Virus record (IMG/VR): IMGVR_UViG_3300031455_000002
Direction: 5' to 3' (one strand)
Source: an uncultured virus (IMG/VR IMGVR_UViG_3300031455_000002)
Taxonomy: Duplodnaviria; Heunggongvirae; Uroviricota; Caudoviricetes
Length of the DNA stretch: 27,252 nt
Made by a program: the position numbers and the translations under genes. How positions within the stretch are numbered: the first letter of the stretch is position 1; every line of letters begins with the position of its first letter. Below the pieces are notes generated by a model. It was not told where the DNA came from. It did no database searches and was given only the letters and a program-made list of their open reading frames with translations. Shown one piece after another: positions 2,872 to 27,252 of the stretch.

Positions 2872-3924
2872 CTACTTGACCAGCTCCGCTACGGATTCCG
2901 CCTCGACGATCGCATCTACCCGTCCGCCAAGGGAAAACGTCCGAGAGGCGGCTCCCGTCTCCGGGTTCACCAGCGGTACCCGGAAGGTTTTTTCGATCGC
3001 GATGACCCCCTTCGGTGAGCCCCACCTGGCCGCATACCCAAGGAGCATCGCCTTCTCCTTCTCTCGGATGTATGGGTCCTCCGTCTCGAGCGCCGCTATC
3101 GCAGCCGATAGATCACCTGTGCGCCGGAACACATCGAGCGCAGCGTGGATACTGTGCCCCGTGGTGAGCGTCTCCGGTTTCTTTATCGGTCGCATCCTGA
3201 TCACGTAGCGGTTGTAGAACTTGCGAGGACACGAACGGTAAGCACGCATCGCGCTCTGCGTGAGCAGGCTCGCGTCGTCCGTCAGCGTCGTCGCTACGCC
3301 GTCTTCGGCGAGCTCCTCATGGACGTCTTCCTCGAAGCGGAAGAAGAGAGGATCGTTGAGATCCATCGTGTTCGAACACGGACCGAGATAGTCGCACTCT
3401 CGTCCCCAGCTCACACACGAGTCTGGATTACGCGGGTACATATTCAGCCGTCGCGCATCCCGCATCAGAGATGCCGTGTTCCACATGTCCTGCGCCGCTT
3501 CGCGCTCGTCGGACTCGAGTCGTACGACCACGCCACGGGCGTAGTATTTCGCAGGGTTCTCCGCGATGGCCTCGAGGCACCTGTTGCCGTACTCCTCTGG
3601 GGTCTCCGGTCTGGACTGGAGAACGTATCCGGCATCGGTGTCGCCGGTCTGGCGCCACTTTTTGCCGTGAAGACCAAGGACGCGCTGGCCGGCGGCGTCG
3701 AGGACGATCTTCTGGTTGTTCTCGTCGAGGAGAGGGACGGTGCTGGGTTTCTGCGCCGGTTTCAACAAACAGTCATAGACGCAGCCGCGCGGGTCGTGGC
3801 CCATCTTGCGAACGGCAGGGAGATAGAGCGAGAGCTGGGGGTCAAGGATCGTCCGTTTCCAGAACGTCGAGCCTGGAGAGAGATCCTCGCTCGTTGTCTT
3901 CGTCTCCCACAGATAGCACTTCAC
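2872..3924 (-). CDS. PD-(D/E)XK Cas4/AddB-like Fe-S exonuclease, circularly permuted
   Basis: Probable start GTG 3924 overlaps the upstream stop (GTGA). Motifs WETKTT, QLSLY, C-x6-C-x5-C, then TQSAMRAYRSCPRKF, GHSIH, IEKTF, GGRVD. Confidence 0.8.
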   Translation of the reverse strand: MKCYLWETKTTSEDLSPGSTFWKRTILDPQLSLYLPAVRKMGHDPRGCVYDCLLKPAQKPSTVPLLDENNQKIVLDAAGQRVLGLHGKKWRQTGDTDAGYVLQSRPETPEEYGNRCLEAIAENPAKYYARGVVVRLESDEREAAQDMWNTASLMRDARRLNMYPRNPDSCVSWGRECDYLGPCSNTMDLNDPLFFRFEEDVHEELAEDGVATTLTDDASLLTQSAMRAYRSCPRKFYNRYVIRMRPIKKPETLTTGHSIHAALDVFRRTGDLSAAIAALETEDPYIREKEKAMLLGYAARWGSPKGVIAIEKTFRVPLVNPETGAASRTFSLGGRVDAIVEAESVAELVK

Positions 3925-4589
3925 TTTGCCACCCTCACCTTGAACGGCAACTTCTCCGCATCCTCGAGTGACATCTTCCTCCACCAGACCTTCTCGTCCT
4001 TGTTCCATCTGAAACCGTGCTCTTTGACCACGTCCTTCATCTCGTACGGCGCGAGCGAATGAACCATCGCCTTCGGCCGCATCGCGTGAAGCAGGACAGG
4101 CTCGAGCTCATGCCCCAGCTCGACGAACCGGGTCAGGATGCGCGAGAGCGTGTCGACATCCGTCATCGCTCGGTGCGCGCCCGACACCCCTAGCCCGAAC
4201 GAAAGTGCCAGGTGCACGAGAGAGCCCCCTCGAGCACGACCGGGCCACGCTACGTCGTTCTCGGTGCACACCCAAGGTCGTCCGAGATCGGGCGTGAACT
4301 GTTGATCGAACTCTGCGTGGTGTGCCAGGATGATCTGAGCCGGCTCGAGGAGCCACCGCACCGTTCCCCAGACATGCTCGGGATCTCGGGCTTCCGGCAA
4401 GAGCTCTGCCGGGATCCCGTTGACGTGCTCCGCTGCGTTCTCGGCGGGGCCTCGGATGAGACTGGCGAAGCTCGCAACGGATCGAGCGCGTTGAACGTCG
4501 AAGAGAGATACCGCCACCTCGATCGCCCGGTCCCGGATCGGATCCAAGCCCGTCGTTTCCGTGTCTATCAAGGCGACGAAACGAAGCAT
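3921..4589 (-). CDS. DnaQ-like (DEDDh) 3'-5' exonuclease
   Basis: ATG 4589 with AGGAG SD; LIDTETTGLD (Exo I), AHHAEFD (Exo II), AHRAMTDV (Exo III); C-terminal VKEHGFRWN motif. Confidence 0.9.
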   Translation of the reverse strand: MLRFVALIDTETTGLDPIRDRAIEVAVSLFDVQRARSVASFASLIRGPAENAAEHVNGIPAELLPEARDPEHVWGTVRWLLEPAQIILAHHAEFDQQFTPDLGRPWVCTENDVAWPGRARGGSLVHLALSFGLGVSGAHRAMTDVDTLSRILTRFVELGHELEPVLLHAMRPKAMVHSLAPYEMKDVVKEHGFRWNKDEKVWWRKMSLEDAEKLPFKVRVAK

Positions 4590-5569
4590 GTTTCTCCTGC
4601 GCGTCGTCGAATGTCTTCCAGCGCCCGCTCGTTGCTCGCGAAAAAATGCGCGGTGCGCCCCGTGGACGCCATGTAGATCATGTGTCCGGCCAGCGCGGGG
4701 CCGTGCCGCTCTTCGAGGGCGTACCCCGCTTCCCCGGCCAGGTGGATCGACCACCCGGCGCGGCAGTGCGTCGTCGTGCACGAGTGCCACGCGCCCATGT
4801 TGAGCGCCCCCTTGCCGGAATCGATGACCTCCAGGATCCGGCGATCGAGATCCGGAACGACGGGCACGTCCTGGTGTTTCGCGCGGTACCGCTCGGCACG
4901 CTGGGCGTAGCGCGCCGGATCGACGACGCGCGTGTAGGGCTCCGGCGGATCGACCTTCTCGACGCCGGCAGGCACGTTTTTGGCGTCCGCGAGGTAGGCG
5001 TCCGCGAGGTTGGCGTCCGCGAGGTCGGCGCCCGCGAGGTCGGCGCCCGCGAGGTCGGCGCCCGCGAGGTTGGCGCCCGCGAGGTTGGCGCCCGCGAGGT
5101 TGGCGTCCGCGAGGTCGGCGCCCGCGAGGTCGGCGCCCGCGAGGTCGGCGCCCGCGAGGTCGGCGCGCGCGAGGTTGGCGTACGCGAGGTTGGCGTACGC
5201 GAGGTTGGCGCCCGCGAGGTTGGCGTCCGCGAGGTTGGCGTCCGCGAGGTCGGCGCCCGCGAGGTCGGCGCCCGCGAGGTCGGCGCGCGCGAGGTTGGCG
5301 TACGCGAGGTTGGCGTACGCGAGGTTGGCGTCCGCGAGGTCGGCGCCCGCGAGGTCGGCGCGCGCGAGGTTGGCGTACGCGAGGCTGGCGTACGCGAGGT
5401 CGGCGCGCGCGAGGTTGGCGTACGCGAGGCTGGCGTACGCGAGGTTGGCGTCCGCGAGGTCGGCGCCCGCGAGGTCGGCGCCCGCGAGGTCGGCGCCCGC
5501 GCCGGACGGATCTCCGCGGCGCCACAGCTTGTGCTTTTCGAGAATCTCGTTGAGTTTGGCCTGATCCAT
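4568..5569 (-). CDS. Pentapeptide repeat protein with C-terminal His/Cys domain
   Basis: About 34 A(D/N/S)LA(G/Y/D/R) repeats followed by MGAWHSCTTTHCRAGW. Confidence 0.9.
   Translation of the reverse strand: MDQAKLNEILEKHKLWRRGDPSGAGADLAGADLAGADLADANLAYASLAYANLARADLAYASLAYANLARADLAGADLADANLAYANLAYANLARADLAGADLAGADLADANLADANLAGANLAYANLAYANLARADLAGADLAGADLAGADLADANLAGANLAGANLAGADLAGADLAGADLADANLADAYLADAKNVPAGVEKVDPPEPYTRVVDPARYAQRAERYRAKHQDVPVVPDLDRRILEVIDSGKGALNMGAWHSCTTTHCRAGWSIHLAGEAGYALEERHGPALAGHMIYMASTGRTAHFFASNERALEDIRRRAGETCFVSSP
4985..5494. repeat. 15-bp tandem repeat (about 34 units) encoding the pentapeptides
   Basis: Unit of the form gcccgcgaggtcggc with variants, directly visible. 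Confidence 0.95.
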
Positions 5570-5578
5570 GGTTCGCGA

Positions 5579-5630
5579 AGCCTAAACGGGACACTTGCAT
5601 CTGTCAACGACATTCGCTACGCTACGTAGC
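5579..5630. promoter_or_regulatory. Overlapping divergent sigma70-type promoters with a possible operator
   Basis: Minus: TTGACA(5607-5602)-17-TAGGCT(5584-5579). Plus: TTGCAT(5595-5600)-17-TACGCT(5618-5623). Palindrome GCTACGTAGC at 5621-5630. Confidence 0.65.
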
Positions 5631-6596: not shown

Positions 6597-7089
6597 ATTC
6601 GGAATCGTTTCTGGAATCACCAACAGAGACGAGACGATCTACATCTACGGTCAATACGCCAAAATCTTTGGTGATCGGATCGGGTTCGTGTCGAAGTTCA
6701 AACAGGACAGGCTCAAGGAATCGGAGGCATCAGAAGGAACTCGATACACGTTTCCACTACGCAAAACGGAACTAAATTTATCGGCAGCTAAGCGCGGAGA
6801 AATCCAGCGACATCTAGCGCCAAAAGAAGCGTTCGTTGACAGAGCCCCGTTTCACCACTCGAAGATTAAGTCAGTTTCGAGATACATCGGCGAATCTGTA
6901 TGCGTGGAGGTTCCAGACGGTCATCAGTTCTTGCAGAACGGGTTCTGCGGTTGGAACAGTCAGGGTTCACAGTTCAAACATGCGGTCGTCATGGTGGATT
7001 GGAAACAGGACTACTCGAACGAAAATACGAGACGGCTGGCGTATACCGCCGCGACCAGAGCGTCAGAGAAGCTCACGGTGTTGACGTGA
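6463..7089 (+). pseudogene. 3' remnant of a RecD/Dda-like helicase gene: C-terminal half of a LAGLIDADG intein plus C-extein
   Basis: ARFLRGLFEDGSV (block E), VRRIVRTMLLRFGI (block H), VCVEVPDGHQFLQNGFCGWN|S (blocks F/G, junction 6957/6958), then SQGSQF...RRLAYTAATRASEKL (SF1B motifs V/VI); in-frame TGA at 6376 upstream. Confidence 0.75.
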
Positions 7090-9944
7090 AGGACACCGTC
7101 ACTCTTCCCCTCTTCCCCACCTCCACCCTCTTCGAAGCCAAGATCCCAAAGCTCCGCCCCTATCAGGAGCGCGGGATCCAGAGGCTTCGAGACCGCGTTC
7201 GCGAAGGGAAGAAGCGCATCCTTCTGGTGGCCCCCACAGGCGCCGGTAAGACCACGGTGATCGCTGCGATCATCCGTACCTCATCCGTGCCCGTACTATT
7301 TGTGGCACACCGTATGGAGCTCATTGATCAATGCGTGAAGGAACTGGCTGCCGTAGGAATAACTAATGTAGGCGTCATACGTGGCAACGATAATCGAGTA
7401 AACCCGAACGCTTCGATCCAAATCGCTTCAATTCAAACTCTCTCTCGACGCGATAAACCGGAAGCGGGCATAGTGTTCGTCGATGAATGTTTCCCCGCTG
7501 GCACTCTAGTCAGCGGGCGTCCGATCGAGGCGATTCGAATTGGAGACTTGGTAGATAGCTTCGATCCGAAAACAGGATTCAGGTGCGTACGTCCGGTTGT
7601 TCGTGTTTTCAGAAAAGAACCCTCATCGCTTGTCCGTCTCACAATAAATGGAGAAACGCTTGTCTGTACCCCAAATCATCGGATCTGGACCAGTAACGGA
7701 TGGGTTGAAGCAAAAGACTCACTCGGGCAAAATGTCGCCGTCCTACCGATCGACTTGCGATTCTTGCAACAAAGAGACCAGGAAGAAACCTCGACACTGG
7801 AGCATCCGGATGCTCTGCGATCCGTGTCTACAGAAGTCAAAAAAAGACAGAGCAAAAAAAGTTCACGCGATCTGCAAACTATGCTTGAAGCCGATTGTCC
7901 TTCAAGGAAAGAGCTTATGGCGCGCGCGATCCGGAGCATTTTACTGCGGAGATCATCCGAAGAACTGTCGACCTGTAATCACAATACGATCGACGTGCGA
8001 CACCTGTGGGAAAGAAACAGGAAAGCCAGCCAGACACAACAGTATTCCGTTGTTCTGCGCGAATTGCTGTCAACAGAGAAACGAGAAGAGAAGAAAATAC
8101 ATCACTCTTCCGTGTGCCATCTGCAACACTCCGGTAAAAGAGAGAACAGTGAAGATCCGTACCGGAAGAGTCTACTGTTCGGAGCAGCACAAAAAAGAAT
8201 TTCTGAGACAAATGCATTCGAAGAGACTATCGGAGTACAACCGAGTGCATGCATCAGAGAGAATGCGTCTACAAAATCCGATGCGAAATCACGGTGCGCG
8301 CTTGAAGATGGCGCACACGCTTCGCTCTATAGGACATCGTCCTCCATGGGTCGGAGGCAAAGGACGAGGGTTAACGGAACCACAACAACGAATGATCAAT
8401 GCACTTGGGCATGGATGGACCCCGGAGCTTCCGATCGTGACGAAGAGAGAAAACGATCTACCCAACTGCATTTACATCGATCTAGCAAACGAGTTTTTAA
8501 AGCTAGCGATCGAAGTGGACGGGAAATCGCATGGGCTTCTGAAAACAAAAGAAGCCGATGTCCGCAAGGAGTCATTTCTTCGTGGGTTAAAGTGGACAGT
8601 GTTGAGGTTCTCGAATCAGGAAGTGATGGAAAATTTGGAGGACTGTGTCCAGAAGGTATCGTCTACAATCTCGAGGTTGAAGGCACTCACACCTACTTTG
8701 CAAACGGAATAGCTGTATCAAATTGCCATCGCGCAGTCAGCGACAGCTACCTAGCGCTCCTCGAGCACTACAAGCAGTCCATCATCCTCGGGTTCACCGC
8801 TTCCCCCACCCGCTACGACGGTCGACCGCTCGGCAACCTGTTCGAGTGTCTGGATGTCATCGCAACGTACGAGGGGCTCATCAAGGACAAGTTCATTATT
8901 CCTCCGCTCTGCTACGGCGGTCCGGTAGAGCTCGATCTGTCGAGTATCAAAACCGTCGGCGGGGACTACGACGACGGTCCTCTCGGGGAGCTAATGCGGG
9001 ACGTGTCTCTCGTGGGTCAACTCCTCGAGCACTGGCGTCGTCTGGCGAACATGTACCCCCGCGAGAATGGTTCTGTAGGTCTCGTCGAGGGACCGCTCCG
9101 TCGCACCTTCATATTCGCCGTCGGGATCCAGCACTCGATCGACATCTGCACCAGGTTCGAAGCGGACGGAGTCCGCATCGCTCATCTCGACGGAACCACT
9201 CCCGAGACAGAGCGGAAGCGCATCATCAATGCGCTCGGATGCGGCGAGCTCGATGCGGTAACCAACGTCGGTGTGCTGCTCGAGGGGGTCGACATTCCGA
9301 GCGCCAAGTGCGTCGTGCACGCCAGGCCGACGCAGTCGATCGTTCTGTGGCGCCAGAGCGCCGGCCGCATCTTCCGCCCCTGGCACCCCGGCTGCCGGCC
9401 AAGCTGTCGCGAACACCCGAGCCTTCAACCGCTGCTTCTCGATCATGCTGGCAACATCGCGCGACACGGCTTCCCTCACGAAGATCTGCACTGGGAGCTC
9501 ACCACTCGAGCCCGCTCGCTCGAGAAGAAGGTCGCCACCCGAATCTGCCCCAAGTGCTATGCCTACCTCCCTGCTTACAAGCGCGTTTGCCCGTACTGCG
9601 ACCACGAGGCGCCTCCACCGAAGCCGGCCGAGCTACCCAAGGAGAGCGAGGAGCAACTCCGTCAGCTCTCAGGGAGCCCTGAGGAGATGCGGCGCATGTA
9701 CTTCCAGATGATGGCTCAGGTCGCGCGCGCTAAGGGCTACAAGCCTGGGTTCGTCGGAGCTCGGTACAAGAGCCGATACGGCGTGTGGCCACCGTGGGAT
9801 TGGAGTGAGTCATTGAAGTCGTCGTTCGCCAGCGATCCGGACTGGCAGTTCAACTTGCAGGCGAACCAGGAACGGAAGAGGAAGTTCGAGTTGGCGAAGA
9901 TGGCGAAGGAGCTCGCTAAGATTGAGAACCCGGACGATTGGTAA
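7086..9944 (+). CDS. SF2 DExH helicase (RadD/YejH-like phage helicase) with intein and C-terminal Zn ribbon
   Basis: GTG 7086 overlaps the upstream stop; LRPYQ, APTGAGKT, VDE|CH split by intein, GFTASP, LLEGVDIP, QSAGRIFR, CPKC...CPYC. Confidence 0.92.
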   Translation: MKDTVTLPLFPTSTLFEAKIPKLRPYQERGIQRLRDRVREGKKRILLVAPTGAGKTTVIAAIIRTSSVPVLFVAHRMELIDQCVKELAAVGITNVGVIRGNDNRVNPNASIQIASIQTLSRRDKPEAGIVFVDECFPAGTLVSGRPIEAIRIGDLVDSFDPKTGFRCVRPVVRVFRKEPSSLVRLTINGETLVCTPNHRIWTSNGWVEAKDSLGQNVAVLPIDLRFLQQRDQEETSTLEHPDALRSVSTEVKKRQSKKSSRDLQTMLEADCPSRKELMARAIRSILLRRSSEELSTCNHNTIDVRHLWERNRKASQTQQYSVVLRELLSTEKREEKKIHHSSVCHLQHSGKRENSEDPYRKSLLFGAAQKRISETNAFEETIGVQPSACIRENASTKSDAKSRCALEDGAHASLYRTSSSMGRRQRTRVNGTTTTNDQCTWAWMDPGASDRDEERKRSTQLHLHRSSKRVFKASDRSGREIAWASENKRSRCPQGVISSWVKVDSVEVLESGSDGKFGGLCPEGIVYNLEVEGTHTYFANGIAVSNCHRAVSDSYLALLEHYKQSIILGFTASPTRYDGRPLGNLFECLDVIATYEGLIKDKFIIPPLCYGGPVELDLSSIKTVGGDYDDGPLGELMRDVSLVGQLLEHWRRLANMYPRENGSVGLVEGPLRRTFIFAVGIQHSIDICTRFEADGVRIAHLDGTTPETERKRIINALGCGELDAVTNVGVLLEGVDIPSAKCVVHARPTQSIVLWRQSAGRIFRPWHPGCRPSCREHPSLQPLLLDHAGNIARHGFPHEDLHWELTTRARSLEKKVATRICPKCYAYLPAYKRVCPYCDHEAPPPKPAELPKESEEQLRQLSGSPEEMRRMYFQMMAQVARAKGYKPGFVGARYKSRYGVWPPWDWSESLKSSFASDPDWQFNLQANQERKRKFELAKMAKELAKIENPDDW
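7488..8723 (+). mobile_element. Intein (412 aa) inserted in helicase motif II (DE/CH)
   Basis: Block A CFPAGTLV, block B LVCTPNHRIW, blocks F/G VYNLEVEGTHTYFANGIAVSN followed by Cys+1; removal restores VDECHRA. Confidence 0.93.
7648..8712 (+). CDS. DUF559/Vsr-like endonuclease with CxxC repeats, nested in the +1 frame inside the intein
   Basis: IDLANEFLKLAIEVDGKSH...DVRKESFLRGLKWTVLRFSNQEV; several CxxC motifs; alternative start ATG 7732. Confidence 0.85.
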   Translation: MEKRLSVPQIIGSGPVTDGLKQKTHSGKMSPSYRSTCDSCNKETRKKPRHWSIRMLCDPCLQKSKKDRAKKVHAICKLCLKPIVLQGKSLWRARSGAFYCGDHPKNCRPVITIRSTCDTCGKETGKPARHNSIPLFCANCCQQRNEKRRKYITLPCAICNTPVKERTVKIRTGRVYCSEQHKKEFLRQMHSKRLSEYNRVHASERMRLQNPMRNHGARLKMAHTLRSIGHRPPWVGGKGRGLTEPQQRMINALGHGWTPELPIVTKRENDLPNCIYIDLANEFLKLAIEVDGKSHGLLKTKEADVRKESFLRGLKWTVLRFSNQEVMENLEDCVQKVSSTISRLKALTPTLQTE

Positions 9945-20016: not shown

Positions 20017-20430
20017 TCAGCACGGCGCCACATCTTTCGGCGCCGGCATCGTGTCGCGCTTGAGTACGTTCTGATGGATCCATTCCTCGAGCTCGATAGC
20101 AGCTTCGTCGAAATTCATCCCGGTCAGGTCGAGCACCGGGACACCGTGCTGGATCCCGTGATCCGCTTCCATCTTCATCCCGGAGGACACGACTGGCCCA
20201 ACGAGGATCGTGACGTCACACCGCTCGACCTGCGCGCAATCACACGCCAGTCCACGAGCTCGGTTCTCGGGAGTCTCCTCGAGAACCCCTGTCATGACGA
20301 TCCACGAGCAGACCGGCGAGACGCCTTGGACACAGAGCCAAGCTGCCCACTGAGCGGCCTTGCGGCGGTTCTCTTCGATGCCCTCGCGCGTGGGGGCAGA
20401 GAGCTGGTGGGCGATATAGGCGACAATCAT
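20017..20430 (-). CDS. NDT-fold protein (DUF4406/DUF1937-like)
   Basis: VAYIAHQLSAP...EENRRKA...DCAQVERCD...SSGMKME. Confidence 0.65.
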   Translation of the reverse strand: MIVAYIAHQLSAPTREGIEENRRKAAQWAAWLCVQGVSPVCSWIVMTGVLEETPENRARGLACDCAQVERCDVTILVGPVVSSGMKMEADHGIQHGVPVLDLTGMNFDEAAIELEEWIHQNVLKRDTMPAPKDVAPC

Positions 20431-23073: not shown

Positions 23074-23254
23074 GTCGAAGGAACGAAGCCCCTCCGCAGG
23101 CTCTGACAGGCTGCGGGTTTCGTGGCGACAGGTGGGGTATCGCCGCGTCGAAGGTACGAAGCCCCTCCGCAGGCTCTGACAGACCGCCGGCAAGCGCCGG
23201 GAGAGCGGCGGGCAGGACGTCGAAGGTACGAAGCCCCTCCGCAGGCTCTGACAG
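23074..23254 (-). CRISPR. Mini CRISPR array: three 36-bp repeats, two spacers (36 and 37 bp)
   Basis: Repeat CTGTCAGAGCCTGCGGAGGGGCTTCGTACCTTCGAC (minus strand) at 23219-23254, 23147-23182 and 23074-23109 (one mismatch, distal copy); unique spacers; one more base is shared, so a 37-bp repeat is possible. Confidence 0.93.
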
Positions 23255-23363
23255 AGGCCCCGAGCGCCCCCAATGATTTCGATACCTTACATGACTGTTT
23301 GCGAGCGGTCCCATTTCCGGCGCTTCTCATCTCTACTCCGCGGCCTCCGGGGAAGCCAGATCA
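23255..23363 (-). promoter_or_regulatory. CRISPR leader-like region
   Basis: 109-bp gap between effector stop and first repeat, with an AT-richer core CGCTCGCAAACAGTCATGTAAGGTATCGAAATCATT. Confidence 0.55.
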
Positions 23364-25397
23364 TCACTCGATCCGGCATCTTTTCCGCCCTTCGCGAGCG
23401 CCTCCTGTCTCCGGCGCGTCACGCATCCGCTCGCCGAAGACGTAGATGAGTGTCTCCTTGAACTCGCTCACGGCAGCCAGGGTCCGATTGCGCCGTGCTA
23501 TCTGATGTAGCTCCACCGGCTTGTCCTCGCTCTTGTCCCTCAGGGCGAGCGCAGCCAGGTCGACGGCTCCCCCAAGTGAGCACGTCTCGTACCTCTCCGA
23601 GAGACGCGCGGCGGTGACCTTGTAGAAGTCTCGGCGTGCCGCGATCGCCGCTCGAGTGGCGCCCTCGGCAACTTGCTCGAGGTGCGTGTCCTTGAGCCGC
23701 CAGGTCTCGAGCCAGCAGGCGAACCGTTGCTCTGATGACACTCCGTGTTCCGACGCCCACTGCTCGAACGTCTCGAACGACACGAACTTCTCTTTCCTGT
23801 TTTCTCTCCAGTCGTGCCACGTTTTGAGCGTAGTGTCATTCGCCAGGACGTTGCTCACACGCCTGAGCGGCTCATGTCGCTGCCAGTGTTCGATGTTCTT
23901 GCACATCTCCTGGACGTCCGATGGCATCTTGTCCAGTTGCTTGACGAGCTCGGCGCGAGCGGTGTTGAAGTGGATGTCAGCGTAGTGCCTCAAGCTCGCT
24001 GCGTAGCGAAGACGCGCAGGGATACTGTCTCGCCTCTGCTGGTGCTTCTTGACCCGGCACTGACCAGCGTGCGGAAGCAGCAACGGCTCTCCGTTGATGT
24101 CCGCAACCTCGAGTGTATCTCCACGCTGCGTCCACTTGAGAGACACGTGAACGTGTCCGGTACCGACCGCTCGCTGGATGAGCGGGCTGGTGGGCGTCGC
24201 GGTGAGCTGCACGCTGTACTCCATCTTGCCGCCCAGGCGCTCCTCGGGGACTAGGTAGATCCAGGTGATCTTGGTGTCGTCCGGGATGGGGCGATGCACC
24301 GCGACCTCTACACTGACCCACTCCGAGATCCCGTTCGACTGCGTGATCCGGATCTGCATCGTGGCGAGCCACTTGTGCTCGTTTTTGCTCTCTGGACGCA
24401 GGCGCATATCACGCACCCGGAGATCACGACACTTCCCGGACAGGATAGCTCCCCATGAGATGCCACCTTGTACCTGCCATCCCATTTTGCGCAGCCTGGG
24501 CAAGTCGCGGTCGTGCTTGCTGCGCGCGAACGCAGGACGGATCTTCGGACGACGTGGTTCTCCGTCGGGGCGAGGCTTCGGTTTTTTGCCGGCTTGAATG
24601 ACCGATTCTTTAACAGCCGTGTAGGTACCGTGGTTCAGGTTGTGAGCGCCTTTCATCCAGTTTTGAAGCCAGTACACGACAGCATCGAGGCGCGTCAGAT
24701 CCTTCCAGGCGTCGTGCCAGGGTTCTTCCAACATCTCCGCACGCACGCTTGCGTTGTACTTCTTCTTCGTGTGTGTTTTGCGTGAGTCAGCGTCGAGCTG
24801 ATCCGAATACTTCTCTAGATCAGACTTCGCTTGTTTCGCTGCGGTCTTCGTTTCTCGAGTCGCGCCTTTCTTCGTCGCTTCTTTCAGAGCGGCGTTGGTG
24901 ATTTCGCGGATACGGTTTCGTTCCTTAAGTCGCTTGACGGAGACCCCTCGTGTACGAGCCTCGTACACCAGGCTGGGTTCATCAACGAACGCCGCGAACG
25001 CTTCTCGCATCGGCTTGGCTTGCTCCCCAGCAGCTTTGCGCCACTGCTTCATGATCTCGATGTCGGTGAGCTCCTTCTCGACGTCGACCTTCTTCGTCGG
25101 TGTGGCCTTGCCTCCCTTCGTCTTCGGTGCGCTCGCCTCCTGACGCTTGCCTCGGATCTTGCCTCGAGCGCCGCTGGGTCCGGAGTGATCCCCGATCCAG
25201 TCCGAGAGTTGCTCGTACGCAGTGTCGATCTCGAAGAGACCCGGCACGTAACGAGAACGGATCTCACCGTACGCGCGGCGGCGCCAGCGCTCGATCGCAA
25301 CGAGTGCGTTGAAGAGATGTCCGGCGTCGCGCATCTCGGCGTGGGCTGCGGCGTGACCTTCGATGAACCTGCGGACTCCGAACTTGAATACCATCAT
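23364..25397 (-). CDS. cas12m: Type V CRISPR effector, Cas12m (V-U1)-like, RuvC degenerate and C-terminally truncated
   Basis: VFKFG...FNALVAIER, long coiled coil, LNHGTY, VAVHRPIPDDTKITW, RuvC-I-like HVHVSLKW, WRLKDTHL...RRDFYKVTAARLSERY, RuvC-II-like SLGGAVDL, RRNRTLAAVSEF; adjacent co-oriented array. Confidence 0.8.
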   Translation of the reverse strand: MMVFKFGVRRFIEGHAAAHAEMRDAGHLFNALVAIERWRRRAYGEIRSRYVPGLFEIDTAYEQLSDWIGDHSGPSGARGKIRGKRQEASAPKTKGGKATPTKKVDVEKELTDIEIMKQWRKAAGEQAKPMREAFAAFVDEPSLVYEARTRGVSVKRLKERNRIREITNAALKEATKKGATRETKTAAKQAKSDLEKYSDQLDADSRKTHTKKKYNASVRAEMLEEPWHDAWKDLTRLDAVVYWLQNWMKGAHNLNHGTYTAVKESVIQAGKKPKPRPDGEPRRPKIRPAFARSKHDRDLPRLRKMGWQVQGGISWGAILSGKCRDLRVRDMRLRPESKNEHKWLATMQIRITQSNGISEWVSVEVAVHRPIPDDTKITWIYLVPEERLGGKMEYSVQLTATPTSPLIQRAVGTGHVHVSLKWTQRGDTLEVADINGEPLLLPHAGQCRVKKHQQRRDSIPARLRYAASLRHYADIHFNTARAELVKQLDKMPSDVQEMCKNIEHWQRHEPLRRVSNVLANDTTLKTWHDWRENRKEKFVSFETFEQWASEHGVSSEQRFACWLETWRLKDTHLEQVAEGATRAAIAARRDFYKVTAARLSERYETCSLGGAVDLAALALRDKSEDKPVELHQIARRNRTLAAVSEFKETLIYVFGERMRDAPETGGAREGRKRCRIE

Positions 25398-26962: not shown

Positions 26963-27252
26963 GCGCGCTTCAGGTGGCCGTCGACCTGGACCCATCCCGA
27001 AGGGAGCCGGTAGATGTTCGCCCCGGAGAGGTTCGCCCAGGAGAGGTTCGCCCAGGAGAGGTCCGCCCTGGAGAGGTTCGCCCCGGAGAGGTCCGCCCCG
27101 GAGAGGTCCGCCCCGGAGAGGTTCGCCCCGGAGAGGTCCGCCCTGGAGAGGTTCGCCCAGGAGAGGTTCGCCCCGGAGAGGTTCGCCCCGGAGAGGTCCG
27201 CCCCGGAGAGGTTCGCCCAGGAGAGGTTCTCCCCGGAGAGGTTCGCCCCGGA
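26959..27252 (-). CDS. Second pentapeptide repeat protein, 3' end (starts outside window)
   Basis: 15-bp tandem units encoding A(N/D)LS(G/W/R), then [20 protein letters not shown]. Confidence 0.9.

Follow-up and report, generated by a model that had tools for sequence, protein, structure and literature searches.

The DNA analysed here is a stretch of 27,252 nucleotides (nt) from an uncultured virus (Caudoviricetes; IMG/VR record IMGVR_UViG_3300031455_000002), referred to below as the window. It encodes P0001, a predicted CRISPR effector of 677 amino acids (aa) that is related to Cas12m but is without the zinc-finger TNB domain and the third RuvC motif (RuvC-III), and its gene is followed by a small CRISPR array. 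P0001 belongs to a clade of uniformly short proteins, for which the name S1 is used here. We consider it probable that P0001 is a Cas12m effector of an old, diversified S1 clade, and that it would use CRISPR RNA (crRNA) to bind DNA and silence it without cleavage.

Relationship of P0001 to Cas12m

The effector gene was delimited by its open reading frame (ORF) and by homology searches.

23364..25397, minus strand: effector gene P0001, 677 aa, Cas12m family, short S1 clade

P0001 has no significant match in Pfam and NCBIfam. When it was compared alone with all PDB chains by phmmer, the sole significant match was Cas12m chain 23vw_A (E 6e-07). A profile of P0001 and 33 homologues matched 23vw (E 1.8e-33), UnCas12m4a (23vu; 5.2e-17), and Cas12m2 (8hhl; 3.8e-11). 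The PDB matches of a profile made from all 66 S1 sequences were Cas12m chains exclusively (23vw, E 4.5e-63; 23vu, 2.4e-31; 8pm4, 7.6e-29; 8hhl/8hio, 3.7e-27). The best PADLOC profile for P0001 was Cas12u1 (E 3.1e-23), V-U1 being the old name of V-M. Judged by these sequence matches, P0001 is a relative of Cas12m (type V-M, formerly V-U1). The ESM Atlas model was poor (predicted TM score 0.48), and its neighbours, TnpB/Cas12f-like clusters, serve as a lead only.

Loss of the zinc finger and RuvC-III

Alignments to Cas12m locate the remnants of the RuvC domain and the last helix that P0001 shares with the family.

24132..24155, minus strand: RuvC-I remnant HVHVSLKW, residues 415-422, aligned to AIDLGW of 23vw
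24141-24143, minus strand: Ser419, at the RuvC-I catalytic Asp position (phmmer alignment to 23vw)
23556..23585, minus strand: RuvC-II remnant TCSLGGAVDL, residues 605-614, aligned to IVLEEFTL of 23vw
23571-23573, minus strand: Gly609, at the RuvC-II catalytic Glu position (phmmer alignment to 23vw)
23448..23495, minus strand: last helix homologous to Cas12m, RRNRTLAAVSEFKETL, residues 635-650 (PDB, PADLOC, and hhalign alignments)

An initial annotation of the window had put Ser419 and Gly609 at the RuvC-I position and the RuvC-II position. The alignment to 23vw agrees, the residue numbering is exact, and Gly609/Gly610 face the Glu-Glu pair of IVLEEFTL. The same annotation had described an ORF that ends without CxxC pairs or RuvC-III, and this description held. 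P0001 ceases to resemble Cas12m at about residue 650-656, directly ahead of the TNB zinc finger; the solved chains continue for about 60 more residues. On the Cas12u1 profile, P0001 matches positions 64-472 of 533, and the full-length relatives P0070 and P0077 reach positions 530 and 531. The lost block corresponds roughly to profile positions 475-533; in the full-length relative P0175 it holds two CxxC pairs and the motif WDQDENAA.

The missing block was not found elsewhere in the locus. CxxC is absent from all three frames between residue ~646 and the array, which bears out the earlier statement that the end is not produced by a simple frameshift; a 1-nt shift near the C-terminus had been overlooked. 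A profile of 79 full-length tails had nothing significant in any frame of the window (best match E 1.6), and it revealed no TNB/RuvC-III-like ORF in any frame of the window or of the S1 loci L001-L004.

The same boundary appears when S1 as a whole is compared with full-length relatives. By hhalign, the S1 profile aligned to the full-length profile over 575 columns (probability 100, E 1.8e-126), with the REC, WED, and RuvC-I to RuvC-II regions aligned throughout, and the alignment ended at full-length column 592 of 678, just ahead of the zinc finger. Behind the break, S1 proteins keep the segment ERSGD..PGGAR..AAE, which follows RuvC-III in full-length forms. TNB and RuvC-III were therefore lost by internal excision and not by plain truncation, so the earlier description of a truncated C-terminal end is right about the loss of TNB and RuvC-III and wrong about what lies beyond them.

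The catalytic positions that remain vary freely in S1. Among the 66 rows, the RuvC-I position is occupied by Arg (14), Asp (12), Glu (12), Ser (9), His (7), Ala (6), Lys (4), Thr (1), and Gln (1), and the RuvC-II position by Gly (24), Ser (10), Asp (6), His (5), Lys (4), and nine other residues. In 75 full-length rows, the RuvC-I position holds mainly Asn (35) or Asp (33), with His in five, and the RuvC-II position Glu (42) or Asp (15); these are residues of the kinds described for the triads of Cas12m clades (PMC10442227). The last 120 residues of the S1 proteins contain no CxxC (0 of 66). Two features by which Cas12m is recognised are thus absent from S1, namely a RuvC domain with the three motif positions and a TNB zinc finger (CCCC or HCCC) within RuvC.

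Conservation of the short form in S1 and its recurrence

A word-indexed search returned 34 homologues of P0001 at 35-61% identity, 33 of which cover at least 97% of the query; the remaining 441-aa fragment (P0022) was excluded from the homologue alignment. All 33 share the short end of P0001, so these homologues are not full length, and the clade with a common truncation that the initial annotation had proposed to look for does exist. An exhaustive search of 50%-identity representatives gave 778 proteins at E ≤0.001, of which the best 150 were used.

A set of 180 proteins was aligned to the family profile and classed by the sequence after query position 655, as short (up to 50 residues), full (over 50 residues and one or more CxxC), or odd (the remainder). 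This gave 94 short, 79 full, and 7 odd proteins; the sample consists of the best matches to a short query and is enriched in short forms, and some singletons may be cut gene calls. A FastTree tree was built from the shared region only, with 172 rows (fragments P0022, P0109, P0117, P0118, P0152, P0153, P0171, and P0174 were dropped). P0001 lies within a clade of 66 rows, every one of them short, with SH-like support of 100. A quick IQ-TREE tree with 66 selected rows, 20 of them from S1, likewise places these 20 on one side of a branch with SH-aLRT support of 100. Members of S1 are 26-66% identical and have open frames of 578-756 aa.

Within S1, many alignment columns are invariant or nearly so. 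Ratios of nonsynonymous to synonymous change (dN/dS) by the Nei-Gojobori method (NG86) among the window, L001, and L004 were 0.23-0.32 over the entire gene. Residues 405-656, the RuvC remnant, gave 0.22 and 0.39, of the same order as the N-terminal part (residues 1-404; 0.22 and 0.22), all of these being rough values. The clade, its support in both trees, and these ratios favour the earlier proposal of a reduced lineage over one of decay.

Loss of the block is not confined to S1. On the FastTree tree the short/full label needs 5-6 changes, and on the IQ-TREE tree 6-7. Short forms from other branches (P0052, P0119, P0145, P0094, and P0122) end at Cas12u1 positions 472-475 of 533, and the full-length sisters P0143 and P0079 reach position 531. 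By these alignments, loss of TNB and RuvC-III recurs at the same boundary in other branches. A second group, with 21 short rows and one odd row, lies inside a FastTree clade that also holds full-length forms. Members of a second short-form group (P0052, P0068, P0103, P0107, P0119-P0124, P0149, and P0160) keep the RuvC-II Asp (TVDxYS), usually have Arg at RuvC-I (HVRIGW), and carry a lone CxxC (RCTPCERP) at the former zinc finger, and this group resembles an independent, less complete loss.

CRISPR arrays and repeats

The window array has three repeats of 36 nt and two spacers.

23219..23254, minus strand: CRISPR repeat 1, 36 nt
23183..23218, minus strand: spacer 1, 36 nt, no target found
23147..23182, minus strand: CRISPR repeat 2
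23110..23146, minus strand: spacer 2, 37 nt, no target found
23074..23109, minus strand: CRISPR repeat 3, one mismatch

Arrays accompany S1 genes wherever DNA was available. Each of the four distinct loci concerned (window, L001, L002, and L004) has an array that begins about 80-110 nt past the effector gene, with 3 repeats in the window, 4 in L001, 20 in L002, and 7 up to the contig end in L004. The L002 sequence recurs as L003, L007, L013, and L053 on two contigs and was counted once. The L002 array (8078-9380) is made of 20 heterogeneous repeat variants, and its last five units are 47-52 nt apart, leaving spacers of about 11-16 nt. Another array with this repeat type (L005, 4001-5500) is found on the same 179-kb viral contig, at a distance of about 110 kb from the L002 array.

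Twelve repeats were aligned, of which 11 are distinct and 7 come from the L002 array. The pseudoknot tested joins columns 9-11 to columns 20-22, and columns 14-19 to columns 29-34. In the alignment, 96% of cells were paired, with compensatory changes in five of the nine pairs; slid controls reached at most 54.5%, and none of 500 shuffles attained the observed values. Counted from the 3' end, these pairs are -28..-26 with -15..-17 and -23..-18 with -3..-8, and the pairs reported for the PmCas12m crRNA are -28..-26 with -15..-17 and -23..-20 with -3..-6. The predicted structure indicates that the S1 repeat keeps the pseudoknotted 5' handle of Cas12m crRNAs, and an adjacent array with such a handle repeat is one feature of Cas12m that S1 does possess.

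Spacer targets were sought in several collections. The two window spacers had no target in the window itself (18-nt seeds, at most 3 mismatches), in GenBank phages, or in IMG/VR (exact 22-mers), and only chance-level matches in PLSDB plasmids (E 0.2-0.7). Spacers of the L002 and L004 arrays had no match in phages. When 44 spacers were compared with all the DNA analysed here, each matched its own place only.

C-terminal tail, frameshift, and leader sequence

The tail behind the excised block overlaps two further features, a change of reading frame and an inverted repeat.

23367..23429, minus strand: C-terminal tail RMRDAPETGGAREGRKRCRIE, residues 657-677, which keeps the family GGAR motif; its last five residues are off the family frame
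23381-23384, minus strand: A4 run where the ORF leaves the family frame by one base (frame translations)
23333..23380, minus strand: +1-frame continuation DAGSSDDLASPEAAE with a TAG stop (23333-23335), a C-terminus of family type
23427..23434, minus strand: GCGAGCGG in the ORF tail, coding part of G-E-R; 5' arm of a conserved inverted repeat
23298..23311, minus strand: leader 14-mer GGACCGCTCGCAAA, invariant; 3' arm of the inverted repeat

The annotated ORF terminates in GGAREGRKRCRIE and a stop, and the +1 frame instead terminates in KGGKDAGSSDDLASPEAAE and a stop. The 1-nt shift in the A4 run lies five codons before the stop and swaps the last 15 family residues for RCRIE and a stop. Of the 180 proteins examined, 91 have an AAE ending, and S1 contributes 45 of these from its 66 members; the tail read across the shift is by eye about as long as that of homologue P0005. 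By translation, the +1 frame is the conserved C-terminus of the family. The 2-kb ORF that had been called intact is therefore open over 677 aa and carries a terminal frameshift relative to its family. Contigs from one DNA run (X1, which may be the source sample) that match the stretch reach only 23200-23255, outside the A4 run, and no RNA run is listed among those containing the stretch.

The leader 14-mer GGACCGCTCGCAAA is present in all four S1 loci (window 23298-23311, minus strand; L001 7959-7972; L002 8024-8037; L004 4485-4498), 10-21 nt past the family-frame stop and about 44-46 nt ahead of the first repeat. Its complement within the ORF tail, GCGAGCGG(TCC), encodes the conserved ERSG, and a third similar copy encodes the GGAR motif. 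RNAalifold pairs the outer two copies, with 60 of 66 cells paired compared with 26-42% in slid controls; there are no compensatory changes, so an RNA helix between the 14-mer and its in-ORF complement is unproven. Part at least of the tail's conservation is thus a matter of nucleotides. The idea that the tail serves solely as a docking motif of the protein was considered and rejected, since synonymous sites in its codons are conserved and the codons complement the leader 14-mer. A scan of IMG/VR for the 14-mer gave 107 matches, judged to be on the order of chance, and only four of the contigs carry an effector relative. Searches for Rfam families and for tRNAs had no match.

Genomic setting

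The 28 window ORFs scanned include helicases, a Sak4-like protein, ParB, exonucleases, HNH endonucleases, a primase-polymerase, a C5 methyltransferase, and a helix-turn-helix regulator, and the window resembles a phage or phage-like replication module by its predicted gene content. L001-L003 are IMG/VR viral contigs. In scans of 28 ORFs from the window and 23 from the flanks of L001, L002, and L004, there was no family match to cas1, cas2, or cas4, or to transposase or TnsC/TniQ. The only non-effector gene shared between loci encodes DUF7768 (window 20017-20430, minus strand; L004 1995-2492, plus strand), with 66% identity over 89 aa; the S1 effector has no conserved partner gene in the DNA examined. 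The DUF7768 gene is nucleoside 2-deoxyribosyltransferase-like by PHROGs and is directly upstream of the effector in L004. A peptide-pattern scan for the effector in 185,579 species-representative genomes confirmed no relative.

Full-length Cas12m relatives also occur next to arrays on IMG/VR contigs (L016 1309-3624; L026 882-3089; L089 2982-4766, minus strand), and their proteins have a zinc finger and a DQD-type RuvC-III. L016 was found on a viral contig with the same repeat type, and L026 and L089 were found through the leader-motif scan. Phage-borne Cas12m is thus not a one-off.

The window has further features. A 1014-aa SNF2/ResIII-type helicase (6900-9944, plus strand) is apparently split by an insert of about 400 residues with weak, below-cutoff matches to PT-HINT and Intein_splicing, which may be an intein. 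Tandem arrays of a 15-nt unit occur at 4980-5501 (34.8 copies) and 27007-27252 (16.3 copies). The former lies in an ORF (3921-5600) with an RNase T-like exonuclease domain and an extensin-like repeat, and the latter encodes pentapeptide-like repeats at the window end.

Discussion

Cas12m is already known to bind rather than cut DNA and is common on mobile elements (PMC11013384, PMC10442227). Full-length Cas12m proteins with DED, HDD, or NDD triads bind DNA flanked by a protospacer-adjacent motif (PAM) without cutting it and silence plasmids and phages, and their processing of pre-crRNA is unaffected by the RuvC active-site mutations tested (PMC11013384, PMC10442227). TldRs that have lost the zinc-finger (ZnF)/RuvC end still bind DNA by RNA guidance (bioRxiv 10.1101/2023.11.30.569447), and a truncated, disordered TldR C-terminus has been reported (bioRxiv 10.64898/2026.09.22.753285). 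From non-cleaving Cas12m and C-terminally reduced TldRs that still bind, we infer that S1 proteins load RNAs and block DNA. The array would be transcribed together with the effector gene or just after it, and the S1 protein would bind and probably trim the repeat-spacer units. The resulting complex may then bind matching PAM-adjacent double-stranded DNA and block transcription or replication without cutting. Likely targets would be rival mobile elements or host genes.

What was observed here is that P0001 is homologous to Cas12m, that the block is lost and its loss conserved in the clade, that an array with a structured repeat is present, and that the DNA examined has neither partner nor adaptation genes. 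That S1 loads RNA, binds DNA, and silences, and what kind of target it has, is proposed by analogy. The earlier suggestion of a binding-only lineage accordingly divides in two: a reduced, conserved lineage is what the clade, the trees, and the dN/dS values indicate, and binding without cutting is what the analogy predicts.

Several points weigh against this reading. PmCas12m engineered to be without TNB (residues 551-578 deleted) is reported to have lost most or all of its activity. No target for any spacer turned up in the collections searched. The frameshift in the window copy may be an assembly error or a real defect. The pseudoknot test comprises 11 distinct rows, 7 of them from one array, and the dN/dS values are rough, with synonymous sites near saturation (proportion of synonymous differences, pS, 0.61-0.72).

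S1 could instead be a domesticated, TldR-like RNA-guided transcription factor that mainly regulates a fixed host or phage gene and takes no part in interference against rivals. Phage-borne TldRs with the same kind of truncation are reported to act in this way (bioRxiv 10.1101/2023.11.30.569447), the window array is tiny with its two spacers, adaptation genes are lacking among the ORFs scanned in the window and flanks, and the close spacing of the last L002 units (47-52 nt) implies very short guides. A fixed regulator seems unlikely all the same, as no spacer was common to different arrays among the 44 compared, the window spacers had no target within the window itself, and turnover is a better fit than a fixed guide to arrays of as many as 20 repeats. 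That the window copy, or the entire lineage, is a decaying and non-functional relic would agree with the loss of all catalytic positions, with the lack of spacer targets in the collections searched, and with the shift that removes the conserved end of the window copy five codons before its stop. The shift lies in a homopolymer run, however, and could be an assembly error, and 66 sequences with long open frames, many invariant or near-invariant columns, rough dN/dS values of about 0.2-0.4 that include the RuvC remnant, and arrays kept in four of four loci make decay quite improbable.

Cleavage by S1, through a relocated active site or a partner nuclease acting in trans, has precedents of a kind, since relocated catalytic residues are known in TnpB branches (PMC10691335) and a Cas12m-Cas3 pairing has been described (PMC10910872). 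Three acidic positions (E364, E629, and E656) are enriched in S1 over full-length forms, each being acidic in 79% of S1, but none is invariant, and of the conserved acidic residues D474 and E225 are common to full-length forms, D374 less so (65% acidic there); a relocated catalytic triad was rejected because the enriched residues are variable and the conserved ones shared. The strand and helix that carry RuvC-III are absent, the searched frames of the window and L001-L004 contain no ORF resembling the lost block, the loci have no conserved neighbour besides the DUF7768 gene shared with L004, and, as a weak argument, homologues that are longer or fused did not turn up. Residual nuclease function is thus very unlikely. 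A decoy or anti-CRISPR role, in which the protein would sequester crRNAs belonging to a host V-M system or cover the sites they target and thereby weaken host immunity, seems extremely improbable to us. Such a role has been suggested for a phage Cas9 whose RuvC is dead (2025 CRISPR-Cas classification; PMC10910872), and the full-length Cas12m relative L016 uses the same repeat type; yet S1 genes keep their own arrays with unique spacers, and the scan of 185,579 species genomes found no effector, so no host system with this repeat type is known.

crRNA-guided binding without cleavage may also be combined with the recurrence of the loss and the features of the gene end. S1 would then be a naturally minimised DNA binder guided by RNA, for which a partial RNase H fold, without its last strand and without TNB, suffices for R-loop formation. 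Loss of the block would have been selected repeatedly at one domain boundary. A helix between the 14-mer and its in-ORF complement would bracket the gene end and couple effector translation to pre-crRNA production, and could descend functionally from the guide-RNA scaffold of TnpB, which also runs over the 3' end of its gene. Taken as a whole, this combination is speculative, and we think it doubtful.

If S1 proteins bind DNA, then crRNA-guided recognition can do without TNB and the RuvC-III strand where the setting is a true CRISPR array, and not in TnpB-derived repressors alone. S1 would represent the smallest core with which a Cas12 can work, and the failure of the engineered TNB deletion, where nature has succeeded, would be explained. 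Such proteins could also be natural nuclease-free scaffolds for repression or base editing.

Comparison with known systems

Cas12m (MmCas12m2, 8HHL/8HHM/8HIO; GoCas12m, 8PM4; chains 23vw and 23vu/23vv) is the only PDB family that matches S1. As in Cas12m, the S1 gene is followed by an array, and the repeat handle is pseudoknotted at the same positions. The described Cas12m clades keep three triad positions (HEK/HQK, HDD, DED/NED, and DND), and the solved proteins carry a zinc-finger TNB/ZnF domain; S1 differs in being without TNB and RuvC-III and in having unconserved positions I and II. S1 thus matches Cas12m by sequence, array, and repeat but departs from it in two architectural features, the TNB zinc finger and the RuvC-III position. 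S1 proteins (578-756 aa) are not smaller than Cas12m because their REC insertions are larger. A "gradual inactivation" of V-M has been noted earlier (PMC10691335). In literature searches on Cas12m, the V-O and V-P subtypes, TldR, and losses of TNB or RuvC-III, we found no publication on a Cas12m-type, array-linked lineage without TNB and RuvC-III. V-O and V-P are inactivated type V subtypes that the 2025 CRISPR-Cas classification states are "confidently predicted" to block transcription by binding; S1 was compared with them by textual description and may overlap with them. S1 may already be catalogued under another name, for example in that classification.

Loss of the TNB and RuvC-III parts has precedents in TldR and in the Cas12 of CasMu-V. 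The premise of the initial annotation that Cas12m and TnpB keep the zinc finger and RuvC-III was for this reason too broad, as TldRs are often without both and the Mu-linked Cas12 is reported to be without RuvC-III. TldR and S1 are alike in the deterioration of the triad and in the loss of the C-terminal ZnF/RuvC part, and TldRs are reported to retain RNA-guided DNA binding, many of their genes being phage-borne (bioRxiv 10.1101/2023.11.30.569447). Unlike S1, TldRs are described as TnpB-derived, with a single guide RNA encoded at the gene 3' end and no CRISPR array; S1 is nested among Cas12m-like proteins and has arrays of up to 20 repeats. The CasMu-V Cas12, a Mu-linked type V effector, is reported to have lost RuvC-III (Altae-Tran et al., 2023, Science; PMC10910872). 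It was compared by description only, and it is linked to Mu transposase genes, whereas no transposase family was found among the 28 window ORFs. The S1 loci scanned show no linkage to Tn7-like or Mu transposition genes, which characterises Cas12k of V-K and CasMu-V.

MvCas12m of myxophage MV-1, like S1, is phage-encoded, lies next to an array, and is without adaptation genes (bioRxiv 10.64898/2026.09.14.751636). It differs from S1 in that its 610 aa keep D305, E463, and D555, and it is full-length like L016, L026, and L089. The 2026 preprint, which describes this one phage case alone, calls it the first. With S1 and full-length Cas12m relatives both on viral contigs, V-M-type systems appear to be a recurrent phage tool.

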